DNA from: Gemmatimonadales bacterium
GTDB lineage: Bacteria > Gemmatimonadota > Gemmatimonadetes > Gemmatimonadales > GWC2-71-9
DNA length: 64,000 nt
Reading direction: 5' to 3'
Assembly (NCBI GenBank): GCA_035491895.1
Contig: DATJJY010000084.1
Location: 7,192 to 71,191, forward strand
In this document: positions 3,189 to 36,098 of the stretch, one piece after another
Layout of the letters: each line of letters starts with the position of its first letter
How positions within the stretch are numbered: position 1 is the first letter of the stretch
The notes under the pieces: generated by a model
What the model saw: only the letters and a program-made list of their open reading frames with translations
Told to the model about the DNA's origin: nothing
The model's database searches: none
Position numbers and translations under genes: made by a program

Positions 3189-4768
3189 AGCTGGGCCGGT
3201 CCCGGTTGTCGGCTCACCGGCGCGCCCACCTCACATCGTTTCTCAACCTCCTCTTCTTCGGCCTCGCCCTCCTCGGACTCGATCGGTTGTTGGCGGCGTA
3301 CCAGCCCGGCGACGTCATTCGATCGCTGGCAGCGGTGCCGTTCTCGACGATCGTGCTGGCGGCGGCGATCTGCGCCCTCGGTTACCTCGCGCTCGTCGGG
3401 TACGACTACGTGGCGTTCCGCGTCGTCGGCCCCGATCTCTCGCTGCTCGAGATGCTGGTGCCCTCATTCGTGAGTTTCGCCGTCAGTAACAACGCTCCGG
3501 CATCGGTGGTGACGGCGGGCGGTGTGCGGTATCGCATGTACCGCCCCCACGGCCTGACGATCGCCGGGGCCGCCGCGGTCGCCGGTCTCAACGTCGCGAC
3601 CTACACGATCGGCCTGTGCGCTCTGGCGGGCGTATCCCTGATCCTGCACCCCTCCGGCGGACCCGCTGCGGGGCTGGGGTTATCGGGCGGTCTGCTCGGG
3701 AGCGTGCTGCTCGCCGTGGTCGCCGCGTATCTCGCGGCCGCGAGGTTTGCCGGAGGTTCGCTGCGCATCGGACGGCACGTGCTGCCGCTTCCTACCCTCC
3801 GCCTGGCGCTGGCTCAGCTCGGCGTATCGGTCGCCGACTGGCTGTTCTCCGCGGCGCCGCTCTACGTCCTCCTCATTAGGATGGCGCCGGTGCCGTTCTT
3901 CGCGTTTCTCACCACGTTCTTGATCGGCCAGTTCGCCGCCCTCCTGGCCCCGATCCCCGGGGGCATCGGTGTGTTCGAGGCGGTCGTGCTGGTGCTCCGC
4001 CCGCCGGAGGTGTCGGCGCCGCAGGTATTGGCGGTCCTCCTGCTCTACCGCGTGCTCTATTACCTGCTGCCGCTCATCGTCGCCGGCGTCATTCTCGCCG
4101 TGCGCGCCGTGCGCCAGGCGCGGGACGCGGATCGCCCGTTCCGCGAGCTGGCGGTCAGGAGCGCCGCGCTCGTACCCCGGATGCTCGGGCTCATCGCGTT
4201 TCTGGCGGGCGTCGTCCTGCTCGTGACCGGGGCAATCCCGGGAGACGATCGCCGGCTGGCGTGGCTCGCCACGTTCCTGCCGTTGCCCGTGATCGAGGCG
4301 TCTCACTTCTTCGCGAGCGTCGTCGGTGCGGTGCTGATCGTCTTCGCCTGGGGGGTAGAGCGTGGAGTCCGTTTCGCGTATCACGGCGTCGTCGGCTTGT
4401 TCGCCTGTAGCGTGCTGCTCGCGCTGCTGCGGTCGTTCGACGTGCTGCTGGCAAGCGTTTTCGCGGCTGCGTGCGTTCTCTTTATCGTTGCCGGTCGGAC
4501 ATTCCCGCGCGGCGACTCTCTGATGCGCGAGCCGATGGGGCCGCGCTGGATCTTCACTGTGGGGGCGGTGCTGCTGGTGGATTTCTGGATCGCGCTGCTC
4601 ACCTACCGCCACGTCCCGTACGGCGGCGAAACATGGTGGCATTTCGCGCTCGACGGCGACGGCCCGCGCGCGGTGCGAGCCGCCGTGGGGGCCTCGGTCG
4701 TGCTGTTGCTGTGGGCCACCGCCCGCCTGATCTCGGGAGTGGCGCCGTCGTCGTCACGACGACGCTGA
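3185..4768 (+). CDS. Polytopic membrane protein, lysyl-phosphatidylglycerol synthase TM-region / MprF flippase-like (no synthase domain)
   Basis: Roughly 12-14 hydrophobic helices. The N-terminal pattern (..VIRSLAAVPFSTIVLAAAICALGYLALVGYDYVAF) resembles the LPG_synthase_TM/UPF0104 family. ATG 3185 overlaps the ADH stop (ATGA); a GTG at 3176 is an alternative start. Confidence 0.6.
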   Translation: MKLGRSRLSAHRRAHLTSFLNLLFFGLALLGLDRLLAAYQPGDVIRSLAAVPFSTIVLAAAICALGYLALVGYDYVAFRVVGPDLSLLEMLVPSFVSFAVSNNAPASVVTAGGVRYRMYRPHGLTIAGAAAVAGLNVATYTIGLCALAGVSLILHPSGGPAAGLGLSGGLLGSVLLAVVAAYLAAARFAGGSLRIGRHVLPLPTLRLALAQLGVSVADWLFSAAPLYVLLIRMAPVPFFAFLTTFLIGQFAALLAPIPGGIGVFEAVVLVLRPPEVSAPQVLAVLLLYRVLYYLLPLIVAGVILAVRAVRQARDADRPFRELAVRSAALVPRMLGLIAFLAGVVLLVTGAIPGDDRRLAWLATFLPLPVIEASHFFASVVGAVLIVFAWGVERGVRFAYHGVVGLFACSVLLALLRSFDVLLASVFAAACVLFIVAGRTFPRGDSLMREPMGPRWIFTVGAVLLVDFWIALLTYRHVPYGGETWWHFALDGDGPRAVRAAVGASVVLLLWATARLISGVAPSSSRRR

Positions 4769-4771
4769 TCC

Positions 4772-5287
4772 TCAATCCGTATCGGGAGCGTGCACGACCC
4801 CGATATACGGAAGCGTCCGGTACTTGTTGTCGTAGTCGAGGCCGTAGCCGACCACCCAGCGATCCGGAATCTCGAATCCCACGTAATCGAGCCGCACTGC
4901 GGTATTCTCGTGGCCGCGCTTGCGCACCAGGACGCACGTCCGGAGCGACGCCGGCTCGCGGATCTCGAACATCTTCACGAGGTAGGAGAGGGTACACCCC
5001 GAGCTGACGATATCCTCGACGATGACCACGTGGCGGCTCTTGATGTCGACGCGCACGTCCATCGCCAGCCGGACCGACCCCATGGGCAGGCTGCCCCGGT
5101 CGTACTGGGACAGCGAAACGAAGTCCACCGCGCAGGGCACCGTGAGCCGCCGGGTCAGGTCCGCCAGAAACACATAGGAGCCGCGCAGCACCCCCACCAT
5201 CAACAGGTCTTCCACCCCTGCGTGATCGTGTGAAATGCGGCGGGCGAGCTCATCCACGCGATCGGCGATCGCGGATGCCGGAATCAT
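4772..5287 (-). CDS. hpt: Hypoxanthine(-guanine) phosphoribosyltransferase
   Basis: VVIVEDIVSSGCTLS PRPP-binding loop, LLMVGVLRGSYVFLADL, and C-terminal DYVGFEIPDRWVVGYGLDYDNKYRTLPYIGV. Likely start is MIPASAIADRV (5287); the track ORF extends to 5353. Confidence 0.9.
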   Translation of the reverse strand: MIPASAIADRVDELARRISHDHAGVEDLLMVGVLRGSYVFLADLTRRLTVPCAVDFVSLSQYDRGSLPMGSVRLAMDVRVDIKSRHVVIVEDIVSSGCTLSYLVKMFEIREPASLRTCVLVRKRGHENTAVRLDYVGFEIPDRWVVGYGLDYDNKYRTLPYIGVVHAPDTD

Positions 5288-5307
5288 GACGGGCGGCTGG
5301 AACCCGC

Positions 5308-6696
5308 TCACACCGGCACCTGCTCCCCGTCCTGTGCCGGACGGCTCGACCATCCCATCTTGGACGAGATCAGGTCGCCGAGCATTTTCGCGGCGGGCGG
5401 TTCACCGTGTACGAGGTAGGTCGTGCGCGGCGGGCGCTTGAATCCGCCGAGCCACCGCAGCATCTCGTTCTGATCGGCGTGCGCCGAGAGACCGTGAATC
5501 GTTTCCACCTTCGCCTGTACCGGCACATCCTCGCCGAACAACCGCAGCGTCTTCGCCCCGTCCTGCAGCGAGCGGCCACGGGTCCCGAGCGCCTGGAAGC
5601 CCACCAGCAGGACCGTGTTCTTTGGATCGGGCAGCCGGTGCGCGAGGTGATGCAGGATGCGGCCGCCGGTCGCCATTCCCGAAGCCGACACGATGATCGC
5701 CGGACCGCGCAGGTCATTCAGGCGCTTCGATTCTTCCACGGCCCTTACAAAGTGGCAATGCGCCGTATGGAGCGGAGTCTGACCGCGCCTGATCTCCGCC
5801 ATGAACTCCTCGTCGAGCTCCTCCGGGTGGTGCAGATAGATCTCCGTGACGTCGGTCGCGGAAGGGCTGTCGACGTACACCGGTAACTGAGGAACACGTC
5901 CCGCATCCTCGAGGTGATGCAGCATCCAGAGCAATTCCTGCGTCCGGTCCACCACGAACGCCGGGACGACGAGGACCCCGCCGCGATCCGCGGTCGCCTT
6001 CACGACGCTCGCCAGCTCGTCGTCGGTACCGGCGGGATGAATGCGGTCGCCGTACGTCGACTCGAGGAGCAGTACGTCCGCTTCCGCCACCGGCTCGGGA
6101 TCCGGCAGGATGGGCCGGTCGTAGCGTCCCAGATCGCCCGAGAAGACGATGCGCGGACCGGGACCCAGCTTCACGTCCACCGTCGCCGCGCCGAGGATGT
6201 GGCCCGCTCGGCGATACGTCACGGTGATGTCGCCCGCGACCGGGAACGCCTGTCCGTACGGCGGCGCCGGTCGCAGCTGCGTCAGCGCCTGTTCCGCGTC
6301 GGCCGCCGTGTAGAGCGGCAATGCCGGCGTGTGCTTCGAGTAGCCATGACGGTTGGCCCGCTCGGCGTCCTCTTCCTGGAGGTGGGCGGCATCGGGGAGC
6401 AGGACCCCCAGGAGGTCCACGGTCGCTTTGGTGCAGTGAATCGGTCCACGGTACCCGCGCTTCACGAGCAGCGGCAGCGCGCCGGTGTGATCGATGTGGG
6501 CGTGCGAGATGACGACCGCGTCCAACGCCGTCGGATCGAACTGGAAGTCGCGCCAGTTCCGCTCGCGCAGCTCCTTCAATCCCTGGAAGAGCCCGCAATC
6601 GAGCAGCACGCGGCGCCCGCTGGCGGTAACGAGGTGCATCGAGCCGGTGACGGTCCCGGCCGCACCGAGAAACTGAATGGAAGGGGCGTTCGCCAT
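5308..6696 (-). CDS. MBL-fold metallo-hydrolase with beta-CASP/RNA-metabolising domain
   Basis: Start MANAPSIQFLGAAGTVTGS (ATG 6696). ISHAHIDHTGALP (HxHxDH) motif, and a later ...HGLSAHADQNEMLRW beta-CASP motif C-like region. Confidence 0.85.
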   Translation of the reverse strand: MANAPSIQFLGAAGTVTGSMHLVTASGRRVLLDCGLFQGLKELRERNWRDFQFDPTALDAVVISHAHIDHTGALPLLVKRGYRGPIHCTKATVDLLGVLLPDAAHLQEEDAERANRHGYSKHTPALPLYTAADAEQALTQLRPAPPYGQAFPVAGDITVTYRRAGHILGAATVDVKLGPGPRIVFSGDLGRYDRPILPDPEPVAEADVLLLESTYGDRIHPAGTDDELASVVKATADRGGVLVVPAFVVDRTQELLWMLHHLEDAGRVPQLPVYVDSPSATDVTEIYLHHPEELDEEFMAEIRRGQTPLHTAHCHFVRAVEESKRLNDLRGPAIIVSASGMATGGRILHHLAHRLPDPKNTVLLVGFQALGTRGRSLQDGAKTLRLFGEDVPVQAKVETIHGLSAHADQNEMLRWLGGFKRPPRTTYLVHGEPPAAKMLGDLISSKMGWSSRPAQDGEQVPV

Positions 6697-6728
6697 GCGC
6701 CTAAGATGCACCCGGCGCCCGCACGCGG

Positions 6729-7508
6729 CTAACTCGCGCGACCTGCTTCGATCACCCCCAGCACTCGCAACAGTCCGTCCAGGAACGTGAGCGGATGCGG
6801 CGGACACCCTGGTACCCAGAGATCGACCGGGATCTCGCCGGGAACGCCGTTCGAGACTTCCGGGCTGCCGCGAAACGGCCCCCCACTCACGGCGCAAGCG
6901 CCCACAGCCAGCACGATCTTCGGCGGCGGAACGGCGTCGTAAGTCTTCTGCAGCGCCAAACGCATGTTGACGTTGACGGCGCCGGTGATCACGATTCCAT
7001 CGGCGTGGCGAGGCGAAGCGACGAACTGCACGCCGAAACGGGCCAGGTCGAACACCACATTACCGAGGGCTACGAGCTCGGCCTCGCACCCGCCGCAGCT
7101 CCCCGCCACGACCGACCGGAGCCGCAGCGATCGCCCAAACAGCTTGCGACTGCGCTCGTCGAGCGCCCGCGCCAGCTCCACCTCGCCGCCTGGCGTCACC
7201 AGGGCGTCGCGTCGGTCGACAGCCATCCGATAATCCCGGGAGTACCCGATGGCGCCCGCCGGACACGCTGCGGCCTCCTCAGGACTGAAGAGACACGACC
7301 CGAGGTCCAGCGACGTCCGAGCGTTCGGGCCTTCTACCAGGAATGCCGAGGGGGCGTGGGCGCGGCACTCGCTGCAGTCATCCGGGCAACGCGCGGGGTC
7401 GCGCACCGCGCGGCCACGGAACCGCTCCGGGAGCTCGGGGAGAGGTCCCCGTGGAAAGGGCAGGGTGCGCATCCCCTGCCGCAGCCGGTTGCGGATCAGG
7501 TCGAGCAC
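6729..7508 (-). CDS. Ehr/Hyc small subunit: NuoB/HycG-like [4Fe-4S] domain fused to a degenerate HycF/NuoI-like ferredoxin N-terminus
   Basis: C-terminal half has GSCGGCEAE ... GACAVSGGPF ... VPGCPPHP (NuoB/HycG cluster motifs). N-terminal half has ..RNRLRQGMRTLPFPRGP..FRGRAVRDPARCPDDCSECRAHAP...CLFSPEEAAACPAGAI (HycF-like with depleted Cys). Start is probably GTG 7508; ATG 7472 is the alternative. Confidence 0.8.
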   Translation of the reverse strand: MLDLIRNRLRQGMRTLPFPRGPLPELPERFRGRAVRDPARCPDDCSECRAHAPSAFLVEGPNARTSLDLGSCLFSPEEAAACPAGAIGYSRDYRMAVDRRDALVTPGGEVELARALDERSRKLFGRSLRLRSVVAGSCGGCEAELVALGNVVFDLARFGVQFVASPRHADGIVITGAVNVNMRLALQKTYDAVPPPKIVLAVGACAVSGGPFRGSPEVSNGVPGEIPVDLWVPGCPPHPLTFLDGLLRVLGVIEAGRAS

Positions 7509-7524
7509 GAGACCGTCCCGCCGG

Positions 7525-9036
7525 TCACAGGTCGTGCCCGGCGTAGGAGAGATTGAAGCTCTTGTTGCACAGCGGGAAGTCGGAGATCTCGTTCCCGGGC
7601 ATCGCAAGCGCGAGTGCGGCCCAATTGTGGAACGACGGGTCCGTGACCTTGTGCCGGCGGATGCTTCCCGTGTCGTCCGTGATGACCACGTGCACGATCT
7701 CCCCGCGCCACCCCTCGACCATCGCCACGACCAGCTCGTCGGGCCGCAGCGGTCCGCACGACACGCGGGCTTCGCCCCGAGGCAGCGCGCCGAGCTGCTC
7801 GATGAGGAAGGCGAGTGAGCGCTGAATTTCCAGCCGCCGCACCAGTGCCCGCGCCAGCACGTCGCCTGCCCAGGCCGTGGCCACCGGAATGTGGGCGAAA
7901 CGAAAGATCCCGTAGGGATGATCCTGGCGCACGTCCCGCGACATTTCGCACGCGCGTGCCACCGGACCGACGAGGCCGGCGTCGCCGCAGGCGGCCTTGG
8001 GCACAATGCCCACGCCTTCGAAGCGGGCCTGTACCGACGCGCTCTGGAACATCAAATCGAGGACCGGCTCAACTTCATCCCTGAGTCCCTCCAGTCGGCC
8101 GTGCATGTACGCCGCCATCTCCGGCGGGATGTCGAATCCGGCTCCTCCCGGCCGCACCAATCCACGACCGTACCGGTTGCCGCTCAGCGTCATCAGGAGA
8201 TTCAGGCACTCACCGCGCAGCCGTCCGAGGTACGCTGCGGCCGGCGCATAGGCCACATCGCCGGCCATGGCGCCGAGATCGCCGATATGGTTGGCCAACC
8301 GCTCGAGCTCGAGGGCGATGCCGCGGATCGTCTGCGCGCGCGGCGTCTTACGGGTGCGTGCGAGAGCCTCCAAGGCCCCGCAATACGCTTCAGCGTGCCC
8401 GATTACGGTATCCCCCGCGATCGACTCGGCCAGCAGCACGCCACGCACGGAGTCGAGCGTCTCCAGCAGCCGCTCCACGCCGCGGTGTTGGTACCCCAGC
8501 ATGATCTCCAGAAACAACACTGTTTCGCCGTGCGCCTGGAAACGAAAGTGTCCCGGCTCGATGATTCCGGCGTGCACGGGACCCACCGCCACCTCGTGGA
8601 CCTCATCGCCCTCGATCCGGAAGAACGGATGTGCCTCCCGATCTATCGCGCCGCCCCGGCGGGCTGGTGACACGTGATCCGGCGGGTGGCGCCGCAACGG
8701 CTTGAGCCAGGGGTGGCCCTCGGGCACCACGCCGCATTGCTCCGCGATTTCGCGCTCGAAGCGGTCTGCCTGGGCGCACTGCAGCGTGAGTGCCGGGTAG
8801 CGGAGATCCACGACCGTGGTCGACACCATCAGGTCGCCGCGGACATCATCGGCCAGGACAGCGACGAGCCTGGTCTGATCGTCTCTTTCAGGCATGCCAA
8901 ACAGCGACACGAGCCGCCACCCATCTGCCACCGCTTGCACCAGCGACTCGCGGAAACTGTCGAGCGATTCGCGCGGAACCGACTTCCAGGGAACGGCCCG
9001 GCGATTACGCAGCCCGAGCTCCCCGAAGTCTCTCAT
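7525..9036 (-). CDS. Ehr large subunit: NuoC-NuoD/HycE-like fusion lacking all four [NiFe] cysteine ligands
   Basis: ATG 9036 overlaps the upstream stop (ATGA). N-terminal NuoC-like domain, then HEVAVGPVHAGIIEPGHFRF, LGYQHRGVERLLE, ERLANHIGD. The position of RxCGxCxxxH reads ESIAGDTVIGH, and the position of DPCxxCxxR reads FNLSYAGHDL at the C-terminus. Confidence 0.85.
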   Translation of the reverse strand: MRDFGELGLRNRRAVPWKSVPRESLDSFRESLVQAVADGWRLVSLFGMPERDDQTRLVAVLADDVRGDLMVSTTVVDLRYPALTLQCAQADRFEREIAEQCGVVPEGHPWLKPLRRHPPDHVSPARRGGAIDREAHPFFRIEGDEVHEVAVGPVHAGIIEPGHFRFQAHGETVLFLEIMLGYQHRGVERLLETLDSVRGVLLAESIAGDTVIGHAEAYCGALEALARTRKTPRAQTIRGIALELERLANHIGDLGAMAGDVAYAPAAAYLGRLRGECLNLLMTLSGNRYGRGLVRPGGAGFDIPPEMAAYMHGRLEGLRDEVEPVLDLMFQSASVQARFEGVGIVPKAACGDAGLVGPVARACEMSRDVRQDHPYGIFRFAHIPVATAWAGDVLARALVRRLEIQRSLAFLIEQLGALPRGEARVSCGPLRPDELVVAMVEGWRGEIVHVVITDDTGSIRRHKVTDPSFHNWAALALAMPGNEISDFPLCNKSFNLSYAGHDL

Positions 9037-10466
9037 GGCGCCGATCCTCCGAGCGCCGTGGCGGCCCGCGCCAGAAGCTGCTGCAGCGGCCCGGGAATCG
9101 CGATCCCCAGAGCAAGCGCGGCGACGACGAGCGCCGCGGGACCCGCGACGAGCCATGCGCTCTCCCGGGCGCGCGGTCCGGAGGAGGCCACCGGTCCATA
9201 CAGCATCCCCAACATCATCGCCCCGACCCCGATGAAGATCACCGCGAGCAGGGCGAGGACCGCGCCCGCGATCCAGGGATGGCCGCCGGCCCAGGCCGCA
9301 CGCACGATCGTGAACTCGCTCAGGAACATCCCGAACGGCGGTGACCCCGTCACCGCGAACAGTCCCAGGAGGAGCAGGATTCCGGACACGGGGACCGCGC
9401 GCAGTACGCCTCCGCCGGATGATGGAAACGCAGTGGCGGCAGGGCCGACAACCAGCACGGCGTTCCCGACCGCGAGGAAGAGGAGTCCTTTTACCACCGC
9501 GTTGTTGACCAGGTGCAGCACGCTGCCGTAGACCCCGACGCCCCCCAATCCCAGCCCGAGGACGAGCAAGCCCACGTGCTCGACGCTCGAGTACGCGAGC
9601 AGGCGCTTCACGTCGGTTTGCCCGACGACGAACGCCGCCGCCACCGTGAGCGAGAGCAGTCCGAAGATCACGAGCGGCGGCTGCACGAATTGACCCAGGC
9701 CGGCGGCAACCGCGACCTCGGTTACCCGAGCGATCCCCAGGAACGCACAGCTGGTGAGGCCCCCGGCCATCAGGCCGCCGACCAACGCCGGCGCCTCGCC
9801 GTACGTGTCCGGCTTCCAGGTGTGCATCGGCGCGAGCCCCAGTTTGGTGCCGTACCCCACCAGCAGGAAGACGAACGCCGCCTTGAGCCAGACCGGATGC
9901 AGCAATGCCGCATGCGCGACGAGATCCTCCAACACAAGTGGCCGTACTCCCGGGCTGAGCTCTCCCTGGGCGGTGGAGAGAAAGAAGGTCCCGAGCAACG
10001 CCAGTGCGATGCCGACCGACGAGAGGACGAGATACTTCCACACTGCCTCGAGGGACCGCCGGTCGCGCCGCTGGAAGATGAGGGGCGCCAACGCCAGGGT
10101 CGTGCCTTCCATCCCCACCCACAGGAGTGCCAGATGATGGCTCACGGCAACCAGTGATGCGGTGGCGAGAAATGCGAGGAGCCAGCTCGCAAACCCGCGC
10201 CCGGTCCGTTCGCACCGCAGGTATCCCACCGCGTACGTCGCCACGACGAAGAACAGCAGGCTGACGACCGAAAGGACGACGAGCCCGAGCGGGTCGAGCG
10301 CGAGCCACCCATCGAGCACGGCAGCGGGTGGTGACCACCACGCCGTCGCGACGAGTATCAGATGAATGGCCGCCACCCATACCAGCCAACCGCCGTGCCG
10401 GGTGCCCCGGGCGAAGGCTCCCGCGGCGCCGAGCGCGGGGACGAGGAACAGCGCGAGCAGGAGCAT
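9033..10466 (-). CDS. Antiporter-like membrane subunit (HyfF / NuoN / Mrp-type)
   Basis: Start MLLLALFLVPALG (ATG 10466, 1-nt overlap with the upstream TGA). LLWVGMEGTTLALAPLI, WKYLVLSSVGIALALLG and LAPMHTWKPDTYGEAPALVGGLMAGGL are typical of the proton-conducting NuoL/M/N family. Confidence 0.85.
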   Translation of the reverse strand: MLLLALFLVPALGAAGAFARGTRHGGWLVWVAAIHLILVATAWWSPPAAVLDGWLALDPLGLVVLSVVSLLFFVVATYAVGYLRCERTGRGFASWLLAFLATASLVAVSHHLALLWVGMEGTTLALAPLIFQRRDRRSLEAVWKYLVLSSVGIALALLGTFFLSTAQGELSPGVRPLVLEDLVAHAALLHPVWLKAAFVFLLVGYGTKLGLAPMHTWKPDTYGEAPALVGGLMAGGLTSCAFLGIARVTEVAVAAGLGQFVQPPLVIFGLLSLTVAAAFVVGQTDVKRLLAYSSVEHVGLLVLGLGLGGVGVYGSVLHLVNNAVVKGLLFLAVGNAVLVVGPAATAFPSSGGGVLRAVPVSGILLLLGLFAVTGSPPFGMFLSEFTIVRAAWAGGHPWIAGAVLALLAVIFIGVGAMMLGMLYGPVASSGPRARESAWLVAGPAALVVAALALGIAIPGPLQQLLARAATALGGSAP

Positions 10467-11104
10467 CAGTCTCTCAGCTCCGTGAGCCGGGCCGAGTCGA
10501 GCGAATCGAACTCCCGGTTGATGTGGAACACGACGATCCCCATGATGAACACACCCACGAACACGTCGAGCAGGACGCCGACCTCGACGAGAAAGGGAAC
10601 GCGGTCCAGGCTCGTCAACCCGAACACATAGATCCCGTTCTCCAGCATGAGGTAGCCCACCACCTGGATCAACGCTTTCGCCCGCGTGGCCAGGACCTGG
10701 AGCCCCATGATGACGCACGCGAGCGAGGTGGTGACCAGCAACACCGGATGCTCACCCGGCACCGGGAGCCGCACCGCCACCGCGCCGGCCACGGCGACGG
10801 CGAGAATTCCCAGCACGAGGGACGCGACATAACCGACCCGTGGCTCAACTTCCCGGCGGACCGCGGCTTCCCGAATCGCCCAGATGAGGAACCAGGGCAG
10901 CACGATCGCCTTCACGAGGATCGTTCCCGCCGCGAGGCCCAGTGTATGGACCGACCACTGCGGGCGCAGCACGAGCGGCAGCAGGCCGAGCAATCCACCC
11001 TGCACCGCCACGGCCCGGATGCACGTCGTGAGCCGCGTGGTGCCGAGAATGAGAAAGCCGAACAACAGGACCAGCAGCAGGAGTAGGTCTGCCAGACGTT
11101 CCAT
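10466..11104 (-). CDS. HyfE-like small membrane subunit (NuoK-related)
   Basis: 212 aa, about 6-7 TM helices. The C-terminal ..GYLMLENGIYVFGL..VPFLVEVGVLLDVFVGVFIMGIVV pattern resembles hydrogenase-4 component E. Confidence 0.8.
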   Translation of the reverse strand: MERLADLLLLLVLLFGFLILGTTRLTTCIRAVAVQGGLLGLLPLVLRPQWSVHTLGLAAGTILVKAIVLPWFLIWAIREAAVRREVEPRVGYVASLVLGILAVAVAGAVAVRLPVPGEHPVLLVTTSLACVIMGLQVLATRAKALIQVVGYLMLENGIYVFGLTSLDRVPFLVEVGVLLDVFVGVFIMGIVVFHINREFDSLDSARLTELRD

Positions 11105-11106
11105 GA

Positions 11107-12093
11107 TTAGCTGAGGAGCTGGAGGATGGCACCGAGCGACGCCAGCACCGATGCGGCAACCAGGAACTGCGGGACTCGGCTCAAGCGGAACCGCGCCATG
11201 CTGGATTCGACCACGCCCACGGCGACGGCCACCGTCAAAAGACCCGCCACGAGCAATCCCAATGCCGCGGGACCGGGGAGACGGCCACGGGACGCCAGAA
11301 CACCGACCAGTAGCGCGGCGAAGAGGGCCATTCTGAGCGCGGCGCCGTAGAGGAGCAGCGCCAGATCCGGGCCACTGTGATCGAGCACGGTAACCTCGTG
11401 AATCATGGTCAGCTCGAGGTGCGTGGCGGGATCGTCCACCGGCATGCGGGACGCTTCCGTCAGCAGCACGAAGAACAGGCTCGCCGCGGCCATCGCCAGC
11501 GCCGGCGCCGCCGCGCCCCAGGGAAGCGCTTGCGTTCCGCCGAGCATCCCTTCGAGCGAAAGCTGCCCGCTGGCGAGTGCCAGCACGACGAAGCTGAGAA
11601 ACAGCGCCGGCTCGACGAGCGATGCGAAGGTCGCGTCGCGGCTCGCGCCCATCCCTTCAAAGCTCGATCCGGTATCGAGCGCCGCGAGCACCAGGGTGAA
11701 GCGGCCCAAGGCCAGCAGCGCGGCGAACCCCACGAAATCGCCGGTGAAACCAAACAGTGCGTGGCGCCCGTCGAGCGGCAGTAACCCCAGAGCGAGCAAC
11801 GGAGTCACCAGTCCGGCCACAGGGGCCAGGCGGAATATCCAAGTCGTCGTCGTGCTGTACACGGCACCCTTGCGCACCAAGCGGAAGAGGTCCCAGTAGA
11901 GCTGCATCAGCGGCGCACCGCGCCGGCCAGTGAGCACCGCTTTCGTCTTGGCTGCGACCCCGGGAAGCACGGGCGCGAGCGCCAGCAGAACGAGGAAGCC
12001 GACGGCGGATGACGCGGTCAGGGGGACGCCCCCTGCGCCAGATAGAGGAGGAGCAGCAGCAGGATAGCGATGACGTACAGGAGGTACACCCAC
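11107..12093 (-). CDS. HycD/HyfC/NuoH-like membrane subunit
   Basis: ..AKTKAVLTGRRGAPLMQLYWDLFRLVRKG.. matches the HycD/NuoH N-terminal loop, and the protein has multiple TM helices. Start is uncertain. The first canonical in-frame start is GTG 12093 (75-nt overlap with the upstream gene). A CTG at 12021 would give a CTGA stop/start overlap and a HycD-like length. Confidence 0.8.
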   Translation of the reverse strand: MGVPPVRHRYPAAAPPLSGAGGVPLTASSAVGFLVLLALAPVLPGVAAKTKAVLTGRRGAPLMQLYWDLFRLVRKGAVYSTTTTWIFRLAPVAGLVTPLLALGLLPLDGRHALFGFTGDFVGFAALLALGRFTLVLAALDTGSSFEGMGASRDATFASLVEPALFLSFVVLALASGQLSLEGMLGGTQALPWGAAAPALAMAAASLFFVLLTEASRMPVDDPATHLELTMIHEVTVLDHSGPDLALLLYGAALRMALFAALLVGVLASRGRLPGPAALGLLVAGLLTVAVAVGVVESSMARFRLSRVPQFLVAASVLASLGAILQLLS

Positions 12094-13985
12094 AACCGGC
12101 CGTGCTGGAGGGGACGGAGCCGCGCCAACACCCCACGCACGGCGCTCCAAGCGGGGAGGATCGCTCCGTCCAGGACGAGCTCGCGGGCTTGACTGTGAAA
12201 CGCCCTTCCCCCATGGGCGTGCGTTTCGTGGACGCCAGCCAAGCGGCCATACGCCGCGAGGAGCGGAGCCGCGAACGACGATGCCGTGTACTGCATCCGC
12301 TCGTTCTGGAGGGCGTAGCCGCACCCCCAGGTCTCCGCCCGCGTGAGCGACCGGCGCCGGCGTACGGCTGCCCACGCCACGGCACCGAGAGCAAGGAGCA
12401 CGACGAGCACGAGCGACCAGAGCCCGAGGCGGACGATCCCCGCGAAGACCTCGCTCCCGCTCGCCGGGAACGGGATTCGCGCGATCGACGCGCCTACGAC
12501 GAGGGCCGGCCCAACCGCGAGACCCGGTGCCAGCCCGATGAAAGCGCACGCCCCCGCCAGACCGAACATCGGACCCAGCATGCCGCCTGCGACCTCGTGC
12601 CCATGTAGCGCCGCGTCACTTCGAGGCACCCCCAGGAACACGACGCCGCATACCTTCGCGAAACATGCCAGGGCGAGGCCACCAATGATCGCGAGGCCGA
12701 CTACGCCGAGGAGAACCAACCGGATGGACCCTCCAGCCGTGCCGCCACGCAGCAGGCCGAGATAGATCACCCATTCGCTCACGAAGCCGTTGAGCGGCGG
12801 CAATCCCACAATGGCGACGGAACCGATTAGGAACGACACCCAGGTGAAGGGCATGCGCCGTCCCAGGCCGCCGAGGCGATCCATGATTCGCGTCCCCGTC
12901 GCGTGAACCGTCGCGCCGGCGCCCAGGAACAGGAGGCTTTTGAAGAGTGCATGATTCATCGTGTGGAGCACCGCGCCGGCGAACCCGAGCACCGCAACGA
13001 GGGGAACTCCGTAGGCCGCGCCCAAGGCCCCCGTTCCCAACCCGATGAGAATGATCCCGATATTTTCGACGCTATGATAGGCGAGGAGGCGCTTCAGGTC
13101 GTGCTGCGCCAGGGCCCAAAGCACGCCGAGAACACCCGACAGCACTCCGCTCACCAGCACCAGCCAGCCCCACCACGCAGGGGGCGCACCGAGCAGGCTC
13201 ACCACCCGGATCAGACCGTAGATCCCCATCTTGATGACCACTCCGGACATCAACGCGGAGACGTGCGTTGGGGCCGACGCGTGGGCGTCGGGAAGCCAGA
13301 AGTGGAGCGGGACGAGACCCGCCTTGAGGCCGAATCCGAAGAGCGCAAGACACAGCACGAGCGCACCTCGGGCGGGCAGGCTGCCAGCCCGACTCGCCAA
13401 AGCGTCGAAGGTGAGTCCACCTCCGGCGCCCGCCCAGGAGGCGAACAGCGCGATCAGCGCGAGGGTGCCAACGTGAGTCGCCACCAGGTACACCCACCCC
13501 GCGCGTCGCACTTCGGCCCGCTCGTTGTCGAACGTCACCAGGAAGTAGGCGAGTACCGCCATCGCCTCCCAGGCGACGAGAAACGGCACCACGGCTCGCG
13601 CCAATACGACCAGCGCCAGGGCAGCCAGCTCGACCGCGAAGAGGGCACGCGCGGTCGCAACGCCGCGCCGGCTTCCGTCGCCGCCGAGTGCGCGCAAGCC
13701 GTACAACGCGCTCGCCAGGCCCGGGCCGAGGACGACGAGGAGAAACGCCGCCGAGAGGCGATCGAGACCAAACACCCAGGGGCCGCTCGGCGCCGGGATG
13801 GGTATCTGGATGTCCGCCGCCGACCCACCCGCCAGCACGCTCACTGCCGGTGCCGCCGCCACCACGCACCCGACGGCGACCAACAGCCCATACGCGCGAT
13901 CCGCGAGCACGGGCCGGCTGCGTAGCACGGCGGCGCACCCCGCGGCGGCTACAATCGTCGCGAGCCCCCAGAAGCACAGGTTCAC
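12018..13985 (-). CDS. HyfB / NuoL-like antiporter subunit
   Basis: 655 aa. AWEAMAVLAYFLV, HFWLPDAHASAPTHVSALMSGVVIKMGIYGLIRV, LKRLLAYHSVENIGIILIG. GTG start 13985 overlaps the upstream stop (GTGA). Confidence 0.85.
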   Translation of the reverse strand: MNLCFWGLATIVAAAGCAAVLRSRPVLADRAYGLLVAVGCVVAAAPAVSVLAGGSAADIQIPIPAPSGPWVFGLDRLSAAFLLVVLGPGLASALYGLRALGGDGSRRGVATARALFAVELAALALVVLARAVVPFLVAWEAMAVLAYFLVTFDNERAEVRRAGWVYLVATHVGTLALIALFASWAGAGGGLTFDALASRAGSLPARGALVLCLALFGFGLKAGLVPLHFWLPDAHASAPTHVSALMSGVVIKMGIYGLIRVVSLLGAPPAWWGWLVLVSGVLSGVLGVLWALAQHDLKRLLAYHSVENIGIILIGLGTGALGAAYGVPLVAVLGFAGAVLHTMNHALFKSLLFLGAGATVHATGTRIMDRLGGLGRRMPFTWVSFLIGSVAIVGLPPLNGFVSEWVIYLGLLRGGTAGGSIRLVLLGVVGLAIIGGLALACFAKVCGVVFLGVPRSDAALHGHEVAGGMLGPMFGLAGACAFIGLAPGLAVGPALVVGASIARIPFPASGSEVFAGIVRLGLWSLVLVVLLALGAVAWAAVRRRRSLTRAETWGCGYALQNERMQYTASSFAAPLLAAYGRLAGVHETHAHGGRAFHSQARELVLDGAILPAWSAVRGVLARLRPLQHGRLWVYLLYVIAILLLLLLYLAQGASP

Positions 13986-14680
13986 CGCGACGCCACCGGG
14001 TGAGTTCCGCTCGTCGCCTGCTCTAGCTCACGCACGCGGGCGAGCAAAGCATCGGCGCTGGCCCGCCCCTCCAACAGTCCCCTGAGCGTCTTGTCCCGCA
14101 GCACAAAGCCCAGCTGCGCCAGTATCCGGAGGTGGGCTGGGACGTTCGGGCTGATGACGGTGAAGAGTGCGTGCACGGGCTTGCCGTCAACCGCGTCGAA
14201 CCCCACAGGGTGGTGCAACAAGCACAGGGTCACGAACGGGGCCGCGACGTGCAGCAGAATCGGGTTGCGGACATGCGGGATGGCGATTCCGTCGCCGATC
14301 CCCGTCGAGCCCATCGCCTCGCGCGCCTCGAGCACCGTGGCGAGAAAGTCGCGGTCGGCGTCGGCGGGGAGCGGCAGGCGCTTCACGATTTGGTGCAGCA
14401 CCTCTGCTCTTCCTTCTCCCCCGACGTCGTGATGGATCCCCCCGGTAACCAGTAGCTCCGACAGCAAGGCCACGTCCTCGGGCCGACGCCGCGCCTGATC
14501 CAGCAAGCGACGGGACACGGCGATGCCCTGTTCCGTAGCCCACTCCCACAGCTCGATGGCGTTCAGATGGAGGCGTTCGTTGACAGTGTGGGCCGGCAGT
14601 CCGCGCTGGCTGATCCAGCGGCGCACGGTCGACTCGTTGACTCCGAGATACGAGGCCGCCTGGTGGACGGTCAGCTGCAT
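13982..14680 (-). CDS. HTH (excisionase/MerR-type) DNA-binding domain fused to a PTS EIIA(Ntr/Fru)-type domain
   Basis: N-terminus LTVHQAASYLGVNESTVRRWISQRGLPAH (HTH_17-like). C-terminal domain carries STGIGDGIAIPHVRNP (EIIA_2 phospho-His loop) and ..VHALFTVISPNVPAHLRILAQL. Confidence 0.8.
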   Translation of the reverse strand: MQLTVHQAASYLGVNESTVRRWISQRGLPAHTVNERLHLNAIELWEWATEQGIAVSRRLLDQARRRPEDVALLSELLVTGGIHHDVGGEGRAEVLHQIVKRLPLPADADRDFLATVLEAREAMGSTGIGDGIAIPHVRNPILLHVAAPFVTLCLLHHPVGFDAVDGKPVHALFTVISPNVPAHLRILAQLGFVLRDKTLRGLLEGRASADALLARVRELEQATSGTHPVASR

Positions 14681-14751
14681 GCGAGGGCGAGGCGGGGGCG
14701 TGGTGCGGACACCGAGCGCGAAACTAACGGGAAATGACGCCGCCCGTCAAT

Positions 14752-16389
14752 TCACGGACTAGGATCGATACGGAACCGGTAGCGGGTGAGTCGAACGCCT
14801 CCGACACTGACATCACCCGTGATCGTACCGCCCGCTCGCGCGACCGCCGCGTAGAGCTCCTGCATCATCGTGGGATACGAGTTCGCGACCAGCGCCCAAG
14901 CCGTCGGATGCGCAACCGCCGCGAGGCGCGCCGCTTCACGGGCCGCCCAGCCGGAATCACTGACGACGGGGACGCCGAAACCGCGGCCCTCGCGCCACTG
15001 GATTCCGGATGCGAGCCCGAGTACCTCGACCCTGCCGCCGCGCGTCGTCCGGAGGCTGTCGCCTTCCTCCAGCCTAACTGGACGGCCGCGCGGAGGCGTG
15101 TTGTGGAATGCCGCGGCTCCCGGCGTCCCCGCGTATTGCTCGATCCAATCGAGATACGCCGTATCGGCGCGCGCCCAATCGGTCGTGTAGAAAGCCCACG
15201 CCGGGATGCTTCCGCTCGCCAGGTAGATGGGCTCGTCCCCTCGCGCGAGGCGCTGCAGCGAGTCCACCGCCTCCCGCGTGGAAGCTGGACGATATGGATG
15301 GGCGACGTTCACTCCGATGAGCGCGACAATCGCCACGACGCCGAGCGCCCAGCCGAGGCGCGCTCGTTGCAGCGTGGGGGCGGCGAATACCGCCGCGAGG
15401 CCCAGCAGGAAGGTGGGGACCGTGAACATCAGGAGACGGGCGGCGAGCGGGTACCGCTGCAGGCCAGAGGCGACGAGGAGGAGCAAGAGCGGTACGCCGA
15501 GCAGTGCGACGCTCGCGCGCGGCAAGCGGCGCAGCCATACCCAGAGCCCCACACCCACGATATCAGCGAAGCCGATGATGACGGCGGCAGGCGCCGAGCG
15601 GCCGACGATCGACATGAATAGCCCGCGCGCCAGATTCCACCACCCCTCCGCGTGGCTGGGTGCGAAGAACGCGGGGCCCCAGAACTGCTGCATGTACCAA
15701 CTGGCCGCGACCGGTCGGTACAGGAGAGCGTAGAGCGGAACCCACACTGCACCCCACAGAGCCAGGCAAAGGATCAGTCGCCGGGCCGTCCGCCCCCTGA
15801 GGGGGCGTACGCCCACGACGATCGCCGCCGCCGCCCCCGCCAGCAGAAAGGGAGCGGGAAGCGAACCGAGAATCGCGACGAGACTCACGACCCCGAAGCG
15901 GACCCAGACGCCCTTCGAATCCGGGCGATCGAGCAGGTCGAGCGTACACCACATCAGGAGGAGGGTGAACAGTGCGTCGGTGATGTACGGCTTGGCGGTG
16001 ACGCTGTATTGAATCAACGCCGGGGCGAAGGCCGCCAGGGCGGACGCGAGGATCGCCGCGGGCTCCGTCAGGAGCCGGCGCCCCACTCCCCAAACCAGAA
16101 ACGGGATCAGCGAACCCGCCGCGAGGGGGATGAAGCGAAGCGTGTACTCGTTCATCCCCGCGACTGTCGTGCACAGCTTCACGGCCCAGAGAAAGAGAAC
16201 CGGACCCGTCTGGAGCGAGGCCAGTGGACGGAGCAGCTCCATGAAGGAGCGTAGACCCAAGTCCAGGCTCAACGTCGTCTCATCAATCGTCAGCGACGGA
16301 CGGGAGAGGTAGAACCCGAGGCGAAGGGCCGTGCCGAGAATCAGGATTACCGTGAGCAGGAACTGTCGACGCCGGAGCGACAACGTCAC
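14752..16389 (-). CDS. ArnT/PMT_2-like (GT-C fold) membrane glycosyltransferase, paralogue 2
   Basis: GTG 16389 overlaps the upstream stop (GTGA). N-terminus LRLGFYLSRPSLTIDETTLSLDL..PVLFLWAVKLCTTVAGMNEYTLRFIPL, about 10-12 TM helices, plus a C-terminal soluble domain. Clearly paralogous to 16386..17990. Confidence 0.7.
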   Translation of the reverse strand: MTLSLRRRQFLLTVILILGTALRLGFYLSRPSLTIDETTLSLDLGLRSFMELLRPLASLQTGPVLFLWAVKLCTTVAGMNEYTLRFIPLAAGSLIPFLVWGVGRRLLTEPAAILASALAAFAPALIQYSVTAKPYITDALFTLLLMWCTLDLLDRPDSKGVWVRFGVVSLVAILGSLPAPFLLAGAAAAIVVGVRPLRGRTARRLILCLALWGAVWVPLYALLYRPVAASWYMQQFWGPAFFAPSHAEGWWNLARGLFMSIVGRSAPAAVIIGFADIVGVGLWVWLRRLPRASVALLGVPLLLLLVASGLQRYPLAARLLMFTVPTFLLGLAAVFAAPTLQRARLGWALGVVAIVALIGVNVAHPYRPASTREAVDSLQRLARGDEPIYLASGSIPAWAFYTTDWARADTAYLDWIEQYAGTPGAAAFHNTPPRGRPVRLEEGDSLRTTRGGRVEVLGLASGIQWREGRGFGVPVVSDSGWAAREAARLAAVAHPTAWALVANSYPTMMQELYAAVARAGGTITGDVSVGGVRLTRYRFRIDPSP

Positions 16390-17990
16390 GGCGGCCTCGC
16401 GAATCCGACCCGCGAACGCTCGACTCCTCCCACCACCGAGTCGACCTCGATCCGCCCGCCGACACGGTCCAGGGCCGCGAACAGCGAATCCCGCGTGCCT
16501 GCGTACGCGGTGGCGATCAACAGCCAGACGGTGGGCCCGGATTGCTTGATGCGGGCCGCTTCCGTGGCGGCCCACCCCGCGTCAGGGGAGCGGCCGCTCA
16601 ACCCGACCACTTCGCGCCATTGGATCCCCGGGGCGAGGCCGAGGATTTCCACTCTCCCGAGCCGCCGTACATCGGAACCCGCCGCATCGGCCACGGTCAC
16701 TTCTCGGCTCCGCGGCGCCAGGTTGTGGAAGCCCGGAGCATCGGGGACTCCGCCCCAGCGGCGGATTCTCCCGAGGTAGCCGGTGTCGGGGGATGACCAA
16801 TCGGTGGTGTAGAACGCCCAGGCCGGAATTGCGCCGCTCGAGACGTAGACCGGATCGCCAGCTGCGGCCGCGGCGATGGTGCGGATCGCTGGACGCAGCG
16901 CCGGCGTGCGGTAGGGATGCAGAACGTTCACGAGAGCGAGCCCGGCCACGACGAGCGCGCTGATTGTTATGCCGATGAGCCGGCGCCTGGACGAGAGCGC
17001 GACAACGCTCGCCGCAGCGCAGAGCGCGAAGGTCGGCGCCACGCCCAGGAGAACCCTGGCCGAGAGTGGATAACGGTGTACTGGCGACGCGACGAGTACC
17101 GCCAGTATGGGGATCCCGAGGAGACCGGCCGGCGCGCGGCCGGCGCGGCGCGCAAGGATAGCGAAACCAGCCACGAACAGAAGTATGACGAGGGGGATCA
17201 AGACGGCTGGGATCGGACGGGCCACGAGCGACTGTATCACCGCACGTCCAGCCAGCTGCCATCCGGCGACGTCCAACGGGGATAGGAAGGCCCCACTCCA
17301 GAACCGCTGCATGTAGCTGCTCGCGGCGACTGGTCGATACAGGGTGAGATAGAGGTAGAGAAAGGCCACACCCCAGACCGCAATGAGGGCTGCAAGCCGC
17401 GCGGCCGAACCGGCGGTCCTGGGCTTGAGTCCCAGGAGCAGGGCGACAGCGACACCGCCCAACAGAAACGGCGCAGCGATCGACCCCAGGACGGCTGCAA
17501 GTCCAGCTACTCCCAGCCATGCCTGGGCCCGGCGTTCTCCCGGACGGTCCAACAGGCGCAACGTGCTTTGCGCCAAGACGAGCGCGATCACCGCGTCCGT
17601 CATATACGGTTTGGCGATCACGCTGTACTGGACGAGGGTCGGCGCAACGCTGGCGATGCCCGTGGCGACCAGTGCCCCGGCCGGGTCGAGCACCCGTTGG
17701 CCGACGCGCCAGACGAGATAGGGGACGACGAGACCGCCGACCAGCGGCACGCTGCGCAGCGCATACTCGTTCATGCCGCCGATCAGGGTGCACAGCTTGA
17801 CTCCCCAGAGGAACAGCGGCGCAGCCGTCTGCTCGTAGGCGAGGGGATGCAGCAATCCGGCCAACGACCGCGCCCCGATTTCGAGGCTCGTCATCGTTTC
17901 GTCGATCGAGAGGGAGGGGCGGGAGAGGTAGAGGCCGAGGCGCAGGGCGGCGCCGAGGACGAGGAGGAGCCAGAAGACCCGCCGCCGCAT
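16386..17990 (-). CDS. ArnT/PMT_2-like (GT-C fold) membrane glycosyltransferase, paralogue 1
   Basis: MRRRVFWLLLVLGAALRLGLYLSRPSLSIDETMTSLEI..PLFLWGVKLCTLIGGMNEYALRSVPL. Same architecture as the downstream paralogue. Confidence 0.7.
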   Translation of the reverse strand: MRRRVFWLLLVLGAALRLGLYLSRPSLSIDETMTSLEIGARSLAGLLHPLAYEQTAAPLFLWGVKLCTLIGGMNEYALRSVPLVGGLVVPYLVWRVGQRVLDPAGALVATGIASVAPTLVQYSVIAKPYMTDAVIALVLAQSTLRLLDRPGERRAQAWLGVAGLAAVLGSIAAPFLLGGVAVALLLGLKPRTAGSAARLAALIAVWGVAFLYLYLTLYRPVAASSYMQRFWSGAFLSPLDVAGWQLAGRAVIQSLVARPIPAVLIPLVILLFVAGFAILARRAGRAPAGLLGIPILAVLVASPVHRYPLSARVLLGVAPTFALCAAASVVALSSRRRLIGITISALVVAGLALVNVLHPYRTPALRPAIRTIAAAAAGDPVYVSSGAIPAWAFYTTDWSSPDTGYLGRIRRWGGVPDAPGFHNLAPRSREVTVADAAGSDVRRLGRVEILGLAPGIQWREVVGLSGRSPDAGWAATEAARIKQSGPTVWLLIATAYAGTRDSLFAALDRVGGRIEVDSVVGGVERSRVGFARPP

Positions 17991-17998
17991 CGGCGACG

Positions 17999-20173: not shown

Positions 20174-20178
20174 GATAC

Positions 20179-20195
20179 CGGGGGCGGTGCCCCCG
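20179..20195 (-). terminator. GC hairpin between tRNA-Cys and the kinase start (possible tRNA terminator/processing stem)
   Basis: CGGGGGC-GGT-GCCCCCG gives a 7-bp stem. On the minus strand it is followed by GUAUCUUGGCUGUU. It lies 5 nt upstream of the kinase ATG. Confidence 0.3.
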
Positions 20196-20316
20196 CGCGA
20201 TTGCGAACCCGAGCGCTACCCGTGCCTGAGCTTCCGTGCATGAGTCGCTACTTCGGGACGTGCGCAGTCACCAACTCGGAATGGCGCGATCGGGGAACGC
20301 CGGTGGTCCCGCTGAG

Positions 20317-20388
<72 letters not shown>

Positions 20389-20436
20389 GGAGAGTGGGAA
20401 AGCTGACCAGCCGGTGGGCGTTCTGCAAGAACCTCG

Positions 20437-20850: not shown

Positions 20851-20933
20851 TGATCCCCCTGTTTGGCGAAGAGTCGGACGGCACCGTCACCCGTAACATA
20901 GGGGGTTCGGCGTCGCCGGCGAGGGGCAGGGAG

Positions 20934-24609: not shown

Positions 24610-24760
24610 GGTGACGTCCTCCGTGGTGGTGAGGTACTGTTCGATCATGGGGCAGCGGGTGACGGTGCGCACGCCGGTTCCGGACGGGGAATTCGGAGAC
24701 GAATTCGACGTCCGAAACCGGCGAGTAGGAGCCGTGCGGCGGGGTAGCGTCTCTTACGGG

Positions 24761-32363: not shown

Positions 32364-32379
32364 GGATGCTCCTTGATAG

Positions 32380-32772: not shown

Positions 32773-32787
32773 GACATTCCTCCGAGG

Positions 32788-34356: not shown

Positions 34357-34398
34357 GTGGTCTCCACAGGTTGAGGTGGAACATCTGTCTTCCATTTC

Positions 34399-34486: not shown

Positions 34487-34649
34487 ATTTGATGTTACGA
34501 GACGTAGCTGGCGTGTCGCTATCTTATCACTGACAGGATAGTGCTGCTAGTCAGCCGCGATGCCCGCATCGCGTTGTTTGCTTCTCGCTCTGGACGCCGC
34601 TGAGGGACTGCTGAAGGCAGGACCGTCCTACGCTGCTTCCGTTACGCTC

Positions 34650-35993: not shown

Positions 35994-36000
35994 GGGCAAT

Positions 36001-36091: not shown

Positions 36092-36098
36092 ACCGTAG

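Follow-up and report, generated by a model that had tools for sequence, protein, structure and literature searches.

Six close-packed genes on the minus strand of a Gemmatimonadales contig (DATJJY010000084.1) follow the gene order of the Escherichia coli hyf operon and raise the question of whether such a locus encodes a hydrogenase, a piece of complex I or a machine of another kind. We examined them within a window of 64 kb (~67% G+C), the term by which we refer throughout to the whole stretch of DNA analysed. The answer developed below is that the locus very probably encodes a member of the Ehr family rather than a [NiFe] hydrogenase, that its membrane subunits point to ion translocation, and that the iron-sulfur (Fe-S) chain of its peripheral arm is predicted to lack a middle cluster. 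The first gene of the operon encodes a protein that joins a helix-turn-helix (HTH) domain to an EIIA domain of the phosphotransferase system (PTS).

The Ehr operon and its large subunit

The six structural genes occupy 6729-13985, and each product has strong family matches in Pfam and NCBIfam, in the order HyfB-, HycD-, HyfE-, HyfF-like, large and small subunit, as in hyf. The products of the region match NCBI proteins HTH64933-HTH64940. From the presumed 5' end onward, the features of the operon are:

14681-14751, minus strand: intergenic leader of 71 nt 5' of the EIIA gene, weakly assigned as the probable start of the transcription unit
13982-14680, minus strand: HTH_17 plus PtsN-like PTS EIIA protein, 232 aa, gene 1 of the operon (PTS_EIIA_2 4.4e-20, HTH_17 1.8e-8)
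12018-13985, minus strand: HyfB/NuoL-like antiporter-type membrane subunit (EhrA-like), 655 aa (Proton_antipo_M 3.5e-52)
11107-12021 or 11107-12093, minus strand: HycD/NuoH-like membrane subunit (EhrB-like) (NADHdh 2.1e-29)
10466-11104, minus strand: HyfE-like small membrane subunit (EhrC-like), 212 aa (NCBIfam 'hydrogenase 4 membrane subunit' 5.1e-22)
9033-10466, minus strand: HyfF/NuoN-like antiporter-type membrane subunit (EhrD-like), 477 aa (Proton_antipo_M 2.3e-43; 'hydrogenase 4 subunit F' 1.1e-88)
7525-9036, minus strand: NuoC-NuoD/HycE-like large subunit (EhrL-like), 503 aa (Complex1_49kDa 4e-35; Complex1_30kDa 4e-6)
6729-7508, minus strand: small subunit (EhrS-like) fusing a HycF-like part (residues ~1-120) to a NuoB/HycG-like part (~125-259) (Oxidored_q6 1.3e-27)

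An earlier, sequence-only reading of this DNA had described six minus-strand genes in hyf order, most of them joined by stop/start overlaps. The family matches bear out each of the six genes, and the overlaps are read as GTGA at 13985, TGATG at 10466 and ATGA at 9036. That reading had also given the six-subunit module the range 6729-14680; the six genes are indeed there, but the range holds a seventh gene as well, the HTH-EIIA gene at 13982-14680, which lies in a different frame from the HyfB-like gene. The GTGA at 13985 is the EIIA-gene stop overlapping the HyfB-like start, so that the EIIA gene is translationally coupled to the complex, and we conclude that the operon comprises seven genes with the EIIA gene included.

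Gene calls differ for the HycD-like start. A CTG at 12021 would give a product of ~304 aa, the NCBI annotation uses a GTG at 12093 (328 aa, with a 76-nt overlap) and other pipelines choose a GTG at 11970. In relatives this start overlaps the HyfB stop as ATGA or GTGA (34 ATG and 11 GTG among 66 loci), and the corresponding letters in the window are CTGA. Upstream of the operon, the leader holds TTGACG...TTAGTT, and the close relatives L083, L084 and L149 have in common with it the stretch 'GTTAG(T/C)TTCGCGCTCGGTGTCCGC'. A scan for consensus promoters and terminators over 4000-21500 returned counts no higher than in shuffled sequence and did not flag the leader, and is uninformative on the operon boundaries.

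Every product scored under the cutoffs of the NCBIfam Nuo and Hyf equivalog models, as illustrated by the HyfB-like protein with 541 bits against a cutoff of 667 for 'hydrogenase 4 subunit B'; the products are therefore related to the named enzymes without being their orthologs. The large subunit is closest among solved structures to HycE (7z0s_E, 5.7e-46), with bit scores of 160.9 for HycE, 127 for MbhL and 82.6 for MbsL. Group 4 [NiFe] hydrogenases are defined here by the motifs L1 (RxCGxCxxxH) and L2 (DPCxxCxxH/R), whose cysteines ligate the Ni-Fe centre. When the protein was aligned to E. coli HycE and Pyrococcus MbhL, all four cysteines were found to be replaced, by A207 and T210 in L1 and by S497 and G500 in L2: HycE 'RVCGICGFAH' corresponds to 'SIAGDTVIGH' and 'DPCYSC' to 'NLSYAG', with L2 as a whole reading 'NLSYAGHDL'. 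The C-terminus ('...SYAGHDL') follows directly on the L2-equivalent and carries no maturation peptide.

Among the ~47 open reading frames (ORFs) predicted in the 64-kb window we found no match to hyp genes, formate dehydrogenase, a formate channel, a HyfA/HycB-type ferredoxin, an endopeptidase or NuoE/F/G. Genes for NuoE/F/G and NuoA/J/K occur neither in the operon nor elsewhere in the window, nor at any of 80 related loci. The quinone ligands of complex I are likewise missing, as His38 and Tyr87 of Thermus thermophilus Nqo4 (the NuoD homolog) correspond to I159 and G208, both of which are at least 90% conserved in the Ehr family. The claims that the catalytic subunit is unable to bind Ni-Fe and that the window has no HyfA-type ferredoxin, formate dehydrogenase, formate channel, hyp or endopeptidase gene are thereby upheld, and, judged by its ligands and subunits, the complex is neither a hydrogenase nor complex I. 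The large subunit is nonetheless among the best-conserved proteins of the operon (73-100% identity within the clade) and still has conserved polar residues where the active site once was (E160, G208-D209, S497-Y498 and D502). Retention of these residues suggests that the former Ni-Fe pocket is probably still functional in some way.

To place the large subunit we scanned 1.84 billion cluster representatives with HMMER and obtained 878 matches below 1e-30. Roughly 100 of the 115 near-full-length top matches do not have the four cysteines; in these relatives 'xGD[TS]' replaces CGxC and a C-terminal 'NKSFNLSYxGxDL' is common. Six relatives with all four cysteines (36-40% identity) form one separate clade in a midpoint-rooted tree, which was built by neighbour joining only and holds no curated HydDB references. 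In that tree the window protein groups with the Cys-less sequences, outside the intact-ligand clade, at a distance of 0.50 from its nearest neighbour and 0.71-0.75 from the four-cysteine representatives. With each GTDB species represented by one genome, we counted at least 597 Ehr carriers in ten or more phyla, including Gemmatimonadota, Planctomycetota, Verrucomicrobiota, Omnitrophota, Desulfuromonadia (Geobacter, Geomonas, Pelobacter) and Myxococcota, with Acidobacteriota, Spirochaetota, Actinomycetota, Bacteroidota, Fibrobacterota and others as further carriers. The order HyfB-HycD-HyfE-HyfF-large-small was identical in all 80 genome loci compared. At two loci, L037 (2574-9965) and L055 (13281-20557), a second hyf-like cluster of six genes (33-37% identity) stands in tandem with Ehr.

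Ehr was first named in Geobacter sulfurreducens (GSU0739-45) as 'Ech-hydrogenase-related'. Its subunits were more abundant on formate in a proteomics study of that organism, by whose account the physiological role was never investigated; our searches with the GSU gene numbers returned proteomics and genome notes only. Later surveys, which expand the name to 'energy-converting hydrogenase related', place Ehr close to group 4f, without CxxC motifs, with Mrp/antiporter-like subunits and with a function that is not known, and the Rv0081-87 locus of Mycobacterium tuberculosis has been assigned to the same class. The suggestion that the substrate and role of Ehr have not been established experimentally agrees with these surveys and with the Geobacter proteomics paper. 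The locus in the window has the properties of the family, namely a Cys-less group-4 homolog, a set of Mrp/antiporter-like, NuoH-like and NuoB-like subunits and a tree position among Cys-less sequences, and the proposed match to Ehr is further sustained by synteny with the Geobacter and Geomonas loci. It is thus a typical member of an already known, uncharacterised family.

The loci of Geobacter, Geomonas and Geobacteraceae are syntenic with that of the window at ~50% identity; Geobacter Ehr has the same subunits and order, a large subunit without CxxC and an HTH-EIIA gene, but two NuoL-like genes where the window locus has one. The E. coli Hyf/Hyc systems (7Z0S) share the order hyfB, C, E, F, G, H, I, and among solved structures HycE, HycG and HycF rank first or second for the respective products. 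Unlike them, the window locus has no Ni-Fe cysteines, C-terminal peptide, HyfA/HycB, HyfD, FdhF, FocB or HyfR, and its HycF and HycG parts are fused. The MBH and MBS complexes of Pyrococcus furiosus (6CFW, 6U8Y) are homologous at lower similarity and have other sets of membrane subunits, whereas complex I differs by its NuoE, F and G and its separate NuoA/J/K.

Iron-sulfur clusters and membrane subunits

The small subunit combines two domains that are a single chain throughout the family. Its C-terminal half matches MbhJ (2.7e-29) and HycG (3.7e-28) and its N-terminal domain matches MbhN (7.7e-8) and HycF (3.6e-7). All four cysteines of the NuoB-like domain are retained (GSCGGCE, GACAVSGG, PGCPP), and in alignment to MbhN and HycF the HycF-like domain shows the motifs CxxxCxxCxxxAP and CxxSxxExxxCP. 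In the 2x[4Fe-4S] ferredoxin fold, one cluster is held by the first three cysteines of motif 1 and the last cysteine of motif 2, and the other by the reverse arrangement. By this rule all four ligands of the outer cluster are present, and the ligand positions of the other HycF-type cluster read C, S, E and A, with three of the four cysteines replaced. We take the lost cluster to be the equivalent of N6b, which by analogy to NuoI in complex I structures lies next to N2. This assignment is consistent with the listing of E. coli NuoI Cys74, four residues past the last cysteine of motif 1, next to N6b. On these alignments the N6b-equivalent ligands would be missing from the small subunit and those equivalent to N6a and N2 intact, and the continuous N6a-N6b-N2 chain of complex I is not found in the protein. 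A further difference lies in the NuoI-like subunit of MBH and MBS, which has two intact clusters where the HycF-like part of the small subunit keeps the ligands of one.

The pattern is a property of the surrounding clade. Of 121 Gemmatimonadota sequences of 70-93% identity, 116 retain the outer cysteines and every one retains those of the NuoB type. None has the ligands of the middle cluster intact, and a conserved 'CLFSPEEA' occupies the place of its motif. A set of 71 small subunits drawn from different phyla includes 45 with all 12 cysteines of the three clusters. Degenerate HycF domains occur in several others, among them Geobacter-type and Omnitrophota sequences and a few from Gemmatimonadota, and the close relatives L004, L006 and L001 have lost the outer-cluster ligands too. 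In the Geobacter-type small subunits L023, L034 and L079, motif 1 is reduced to 'ACP' and motif 2 shortened to 'CLFCAECP'. These three proteins may retain the inner cluster alone, as judged from the motifs, in which case Geobacter-type versions would keep a different subset of ligands from the window version, which keeps those of the outer cluster only. A structural study of formate hydrogenlyase puts each hop of its relay below 14 Å and transfer over 17 Å at the order of 100 per second. With hops this short in a homologous relay, skipping a cluster should slow electron transfer strongly. The AlphaFold2 model of the small subunit, made with 38 close homologs, reached a mean pLDDT (predicted local distance difference test) of 52.6 and was not used for fold search or geometry.

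All four membrane subunits retain charged residues that serve ion translocation in this superfamily, by comparison with 50-67 relatives at a conservation threshold of at least 90%. The HyfB-like subunit conserves E140 (the Glu of transmembrane helix 5, TM5), K221 (the TM7 Lys), K252 and E404 among 50 relatives, the HyfF-like subunit E120, K208, K326 and E384, and the HyfE-like subunit K65, E85, E155, E174 and D180. The acidic loop of the HycD-like subunit, 'LAENxRIPxDDPNTHLELTMIHE', is conserved, and both this loop and the 'EPGHFR' loop are features common to E. coli Hyf/Hyc. The HyfB- and HyfF-like proteins carry the TM5 Glu, TM7 Lys and TM12 Lys/Glu that mark MrpA/D of Mrp-type antiporters; the locus departs from the Mrp type in its small subunits, as the HyfE-like protein is the sole small membrane protein and a full NuoB/C/D/I-like arm is encoded. 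Retention of the Glu and Lys residues of the antiporter-like modules together with the acidic NuoH-type loop makes ion translocation the best-supported predicted activity of the complex.

The HTH-EIIA gene and the wider neighbourhood

The product of the first operon gene has an N-terminal HTH_17 domain (excisionase/MerR-like) followed by PTS_EIIA_2. The EIIA domain is closest in the PDB to PtsN structures (3URR, 2A0J, 4GQX and 1A6J; 1e-12 to 3e-14), and its predicted phospho-acceptor histidine (His136) lies in 'GIAIPHVRNP', where 'GIAIPH' and a second histidine are at least 90% conserved among 50 homologs. The protein thus has the fold of PtsN and its histidine in a GxAxPH context. It differs from PtsN in the added N-terminal HTH_17 and in its dedication to Ehr clusters, and it reaches 64.9 bits with the PtsN equivalog model, for which the cutoff is 138.7. 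Neither ptsP nor ptsO was seen in the window. Our literature search returned no characterised protein with the HTH_17 plus EIIA architecture and no paper linking Ehr with a PTS EIIA protein, a search in which synonyms of Ehr are ambiguous ('ECH-related' for Keap1, and the electronic health record).

Linkage of this gene to Ehr was evident from both directions. An EIIA homolog lies within 3.2 kb upstream of HyfB, mostly adjacent, in 41 of the 51 genome loci with enough upstream sequence. In the reciprocal metagenome search, which used an alignment of 13 EIIA sequences as query, Ehr genes were downstream in all 60 informative loci, with a HyfB-like gene directly downstream in 59 and HyfE-HyfF-large in the 60th. 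The EIIA gene is co-directional and translationally coupled in the window but divergent in Geobacter Ehr, where Geobacter-type loci pair it with the extra NuoL-like gene, divergent from the rest of the cluster. The EIIA protein is therefore dedicated to Ehr clusters across phyla. We infer a role as transcription factor under the control of a PTS-type phosphorelay, possibly with direct regulation of the NuoL-like subunit as well.

Two further observations concern this gene in other loci. A second HTH_17 plus PTS_EIIA_2 paralog (25-29% identity) adjoins the first in L002 (1636-2343), L060 (12537-13268), L096, L101, L102 and L108. In L107, L110, L118 and L122 a divergent SulP gene lies 5' of the EIIA gene, and these loci have in common 'CTTGACGTTGAACGGTGGTTCAATATACTG' with a promoter-like TTGACG/TATACT pair; the spacer of 'CTTGACGTTGAACGGTGGTTCAATATACTG' holds the palindrome TTGAAC-N4-GTTCAA, a candidate operator for the HTH-EIIA protein.

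Unbiased clustering of the ORFs neighbouring Ehr at 82 loci returned only two recurrent families besides the core genes, EIIA (47 loci) and SulP (8 loci), and no recurrent donor module, ferredoxin, formate dehydrogenase, hyp or maturation gene. What else recurred consisted of antisense shadow ORFs opposite core genes, and the minor clusters, which by Pfam comprise an ABC ATPase, a histidine kinase, a zinc-ribbon protein and second EIIA paralogs, were uninformative. The SulP neighbour is DauA-like at 526 bits (cutoff 614) and passes the general sulP model. Loci of Gemmatimonadota, Omnitrophota and Verrucomicrobiota have it beside Ehr, where it lies immediately upstream of EIIA in the same direction or is transcribed divergently from it; in the window it is not adjacent to Ehr.

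The Ehr operon of the window is flanked on the same strand by:

4772-5353, minus strand: phosphoribosyltransferase (hpt-like), after the beta-CASP gene
5308-6696, minus strand: beta-CASP metallo-beta-lactamase RNase-like gene, starting 32 nt past the small-subunit stop
14752-20173, minus strand: two tandem PMT_2-family glycosyltransferases and a Ser/Thr kinase with TPR repeats

The sequence-only reading had remarked that the module sits in a run of one strand that extends from the kinase (20173) to hpt (4772). The run is real, but the genes that flank Ehr in it are not conserved neighbours of Ehr at other loci. A beta-CASP homolog occurs near Ehr in L002 as well, a pairing that is not conserved across phyla. 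We considered the beta-CASP RNase, hpt, the PMT_2 glycosyltransferases and the Ser/Thr kinase as operon members and rejected them, as they are not conserved beside Ehr in other phyla.

Farther away, the minus strand at 31170-37826 holds a nitrogen-assimilation block with an OmpL-like porin, P-II, an ammonium transporter and two glutamine synthetase genes. The interval 38890-49603 is rich in signalling genes, with a CHASE3-PAS hybrid histidine kinase (1014 aa), a response-regulator/histidine-kinase fusion, a stand-alone receiver and two receiver-HD-GYP-type (HD_5) proteins. At 24530-26221 a 563-aa ORF fuses Ada-type Zn-binding, AraC HTH and AlkA N-terminal domains and resembles an adaptive-response regulator/glycosylase.

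Proposed mechanism and its alternatives

Tentatively, and with a confidence somewhat short of even, we favour a mechanism that combines ion translocation, a slow or regulatory redox input and EIIA-type control. The seven-gene operon would encode an Ehr-type membrane complex that moves H+ or Na+ across the membrane. MBH and MBS are complex-I-like ion translocators that are fed by soluble ferredoxin and have no dedicated donor module. An ancestral three-cluster wire of Ehr may similarly have been fed by a soluble low-potential donor such as ferredoxin, as in the MBH and Ech hydrogenases, which is suggested by the three intact clusters in most phyla together with the lack of a donor module nearby. 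Without a middle cluster, as in the Gemmatimonadota lineage, electrons should pass only slowly, if at all, from the outer to the NuoB-type cluster, and the interruption of a wire whose two ends are both conserved favours a slow or regulatory input. We hypothesize that redox input gates or tunes ion translocation and does not support fast turnover, that movement of H+/Na+ would be the main output, and that the phosphorylation state of EIIA, as a PTS-Ntr-type signal, may set the expression or the activity of the complex.

Several results weigh against this mechanism. The NuoB-type cluster has been lost in six lineages of Planctomycetota, Verrucomicrobiota and Actinomycetota (L010, L032, L047, L059, L060 and L075), where two to four of the four NuoB-type cysteines are replaced and both HycF-type motifs are retained, the reverse of the pattern in the window. 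Together with the loss of the middle cluster here, these losses weaken any model that makes electron transfer to the large subunit the central function. The order assigned to the HycF-type clusters follows by analogy from ferredoxin-fold topology and one indirect remark on E. coli NuoI. Neither the locus nor neighbour clustering at 82 loci pointed to a substrate, a donor or an acceptor, quinone reduction in the style of complex I is not supported, given the absence of the quinone-ligating Tyr and His, and the literature searched contained no experimental data on Ehr beyond the Geobacter proteomics.

The alternative that survives best, which we nevertheless consider unlikely, is a redox-independent Mrp-type antiporter or ion-leak module in which the peripheral arm would be a structural cap or a regulatory sensor. 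EIIA would then act by protein contact, as PtsN does with K+ transport proteins, and the gradient would feed neighbours such as the DauA-like SulP. The repeated and independent loss of Fe-S ligands while the membrane subunits stay conserved would follow readily from such an arrangement, and yet 45 of 71 family members retain three clusters and the eight cluster cysteines are clearly constrained in the Gemmatimonadota clade. That EIIA always stands directly before the HyfB-like gene, even when the pair is divergent from the rest, and that several phyla have a SulP anion symporter next to Ehr agree with control and use of an ion gradient; a passive cap is hard to square with a large subunit whose identity within the clade is 73-100% and whose former active-site pocket has invariant polar residues.

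A bolder form of EIIA control, to which we assign a low probability, would make Ehr a PTS-controlled ion translocator that is not primarily a redox enzyme, with the HTH-EIIA protein, which accompanies Ehr across ten or more phyla, coupling a phosphoenolpyruvate/nitrogen-status phosphorelay to the H+/Na+ machine. It is similarly improbable that this coupling runs by transcription, possibly with docking on the NuoL-like subunit, and serves SulP through the gradient. Its third element, equally doubtful, is that the Fe-S clusters would be elements for tuning or sensing that the complex can do without, a view suggested by their repeated loss in particular lineages.

More doubtful still is a full redox-driven pump with an unrecognised acceptor, such as a non-canonically bound menaquinone, or sulfur or another small compound as in MBS, with reduction by ferredoxin or a similar donor at the NuoB/NuoD/NuoH interface, ion pumping at normal rates and a changed geometry of the fused subunit compensating for the missing middle cluster. 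MBS is a precedent for the loss of hydrogenase chemistry in which a Cys-poor large subunit keeps redox activity, and its large subunit (6u8y_L) is homologous. That 116-121 of the 121 clade members keep the outer and the NuoB-type cluster is compatible with such a pump, but L004, L006 and L001 have lost the outer-cluster ligands, which makes the input site dispensable even within Gemmatimonadota. The family-wide HycF-NuoB fusion and the 'CLFSPEEA' in place of the second motif, which suggests a remodelled and constrained domain, would suit an altered geometry; the quinone-site residues are absent, however, and no acceptor-related genes are conserved nearby at the 82 loci.

A true [NiFe] hydrogenase of the Hyf/Ehf type with odd ligands, or a nuo operon fragment, is highly improbable and was rejected on the ligand and subunit tests, since the hyfB-C-E-F-G-H-I order, HycE as best solved match and the NCBI Nuo names of several products are outweighed by replacement of the four ligand cysteines here and in ~100 nearest representatives, by Gly and Ile in place of Nqo4 Tyr87 and His38, by the lack of a maturation peptide, of hyp and protease genes in the window and of NuoE/F/G/A/J/K, and by NCBIfam equivalog scores under their cutoffs.

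Ehr is one uncharacterised branch between group-4 hydrogenases and complex I, and it is very common in soil and sediment bacteria. A single locus leaves its function unsolved, but this one offers three testable handles that we did not find in the literature searched: a PtsN-like HTH regulator, the loss of the middle cluster and the SulP neighbour. The Gemmatimonadota clade, which has kept the first and last clusters and lost the middle one, is a natural experiment on the need for electron transfer in this family. If redox chemistry proves to be dispensable, Ehr would exemplify how a machine of the complex I type can be turned to regulated ion transport.

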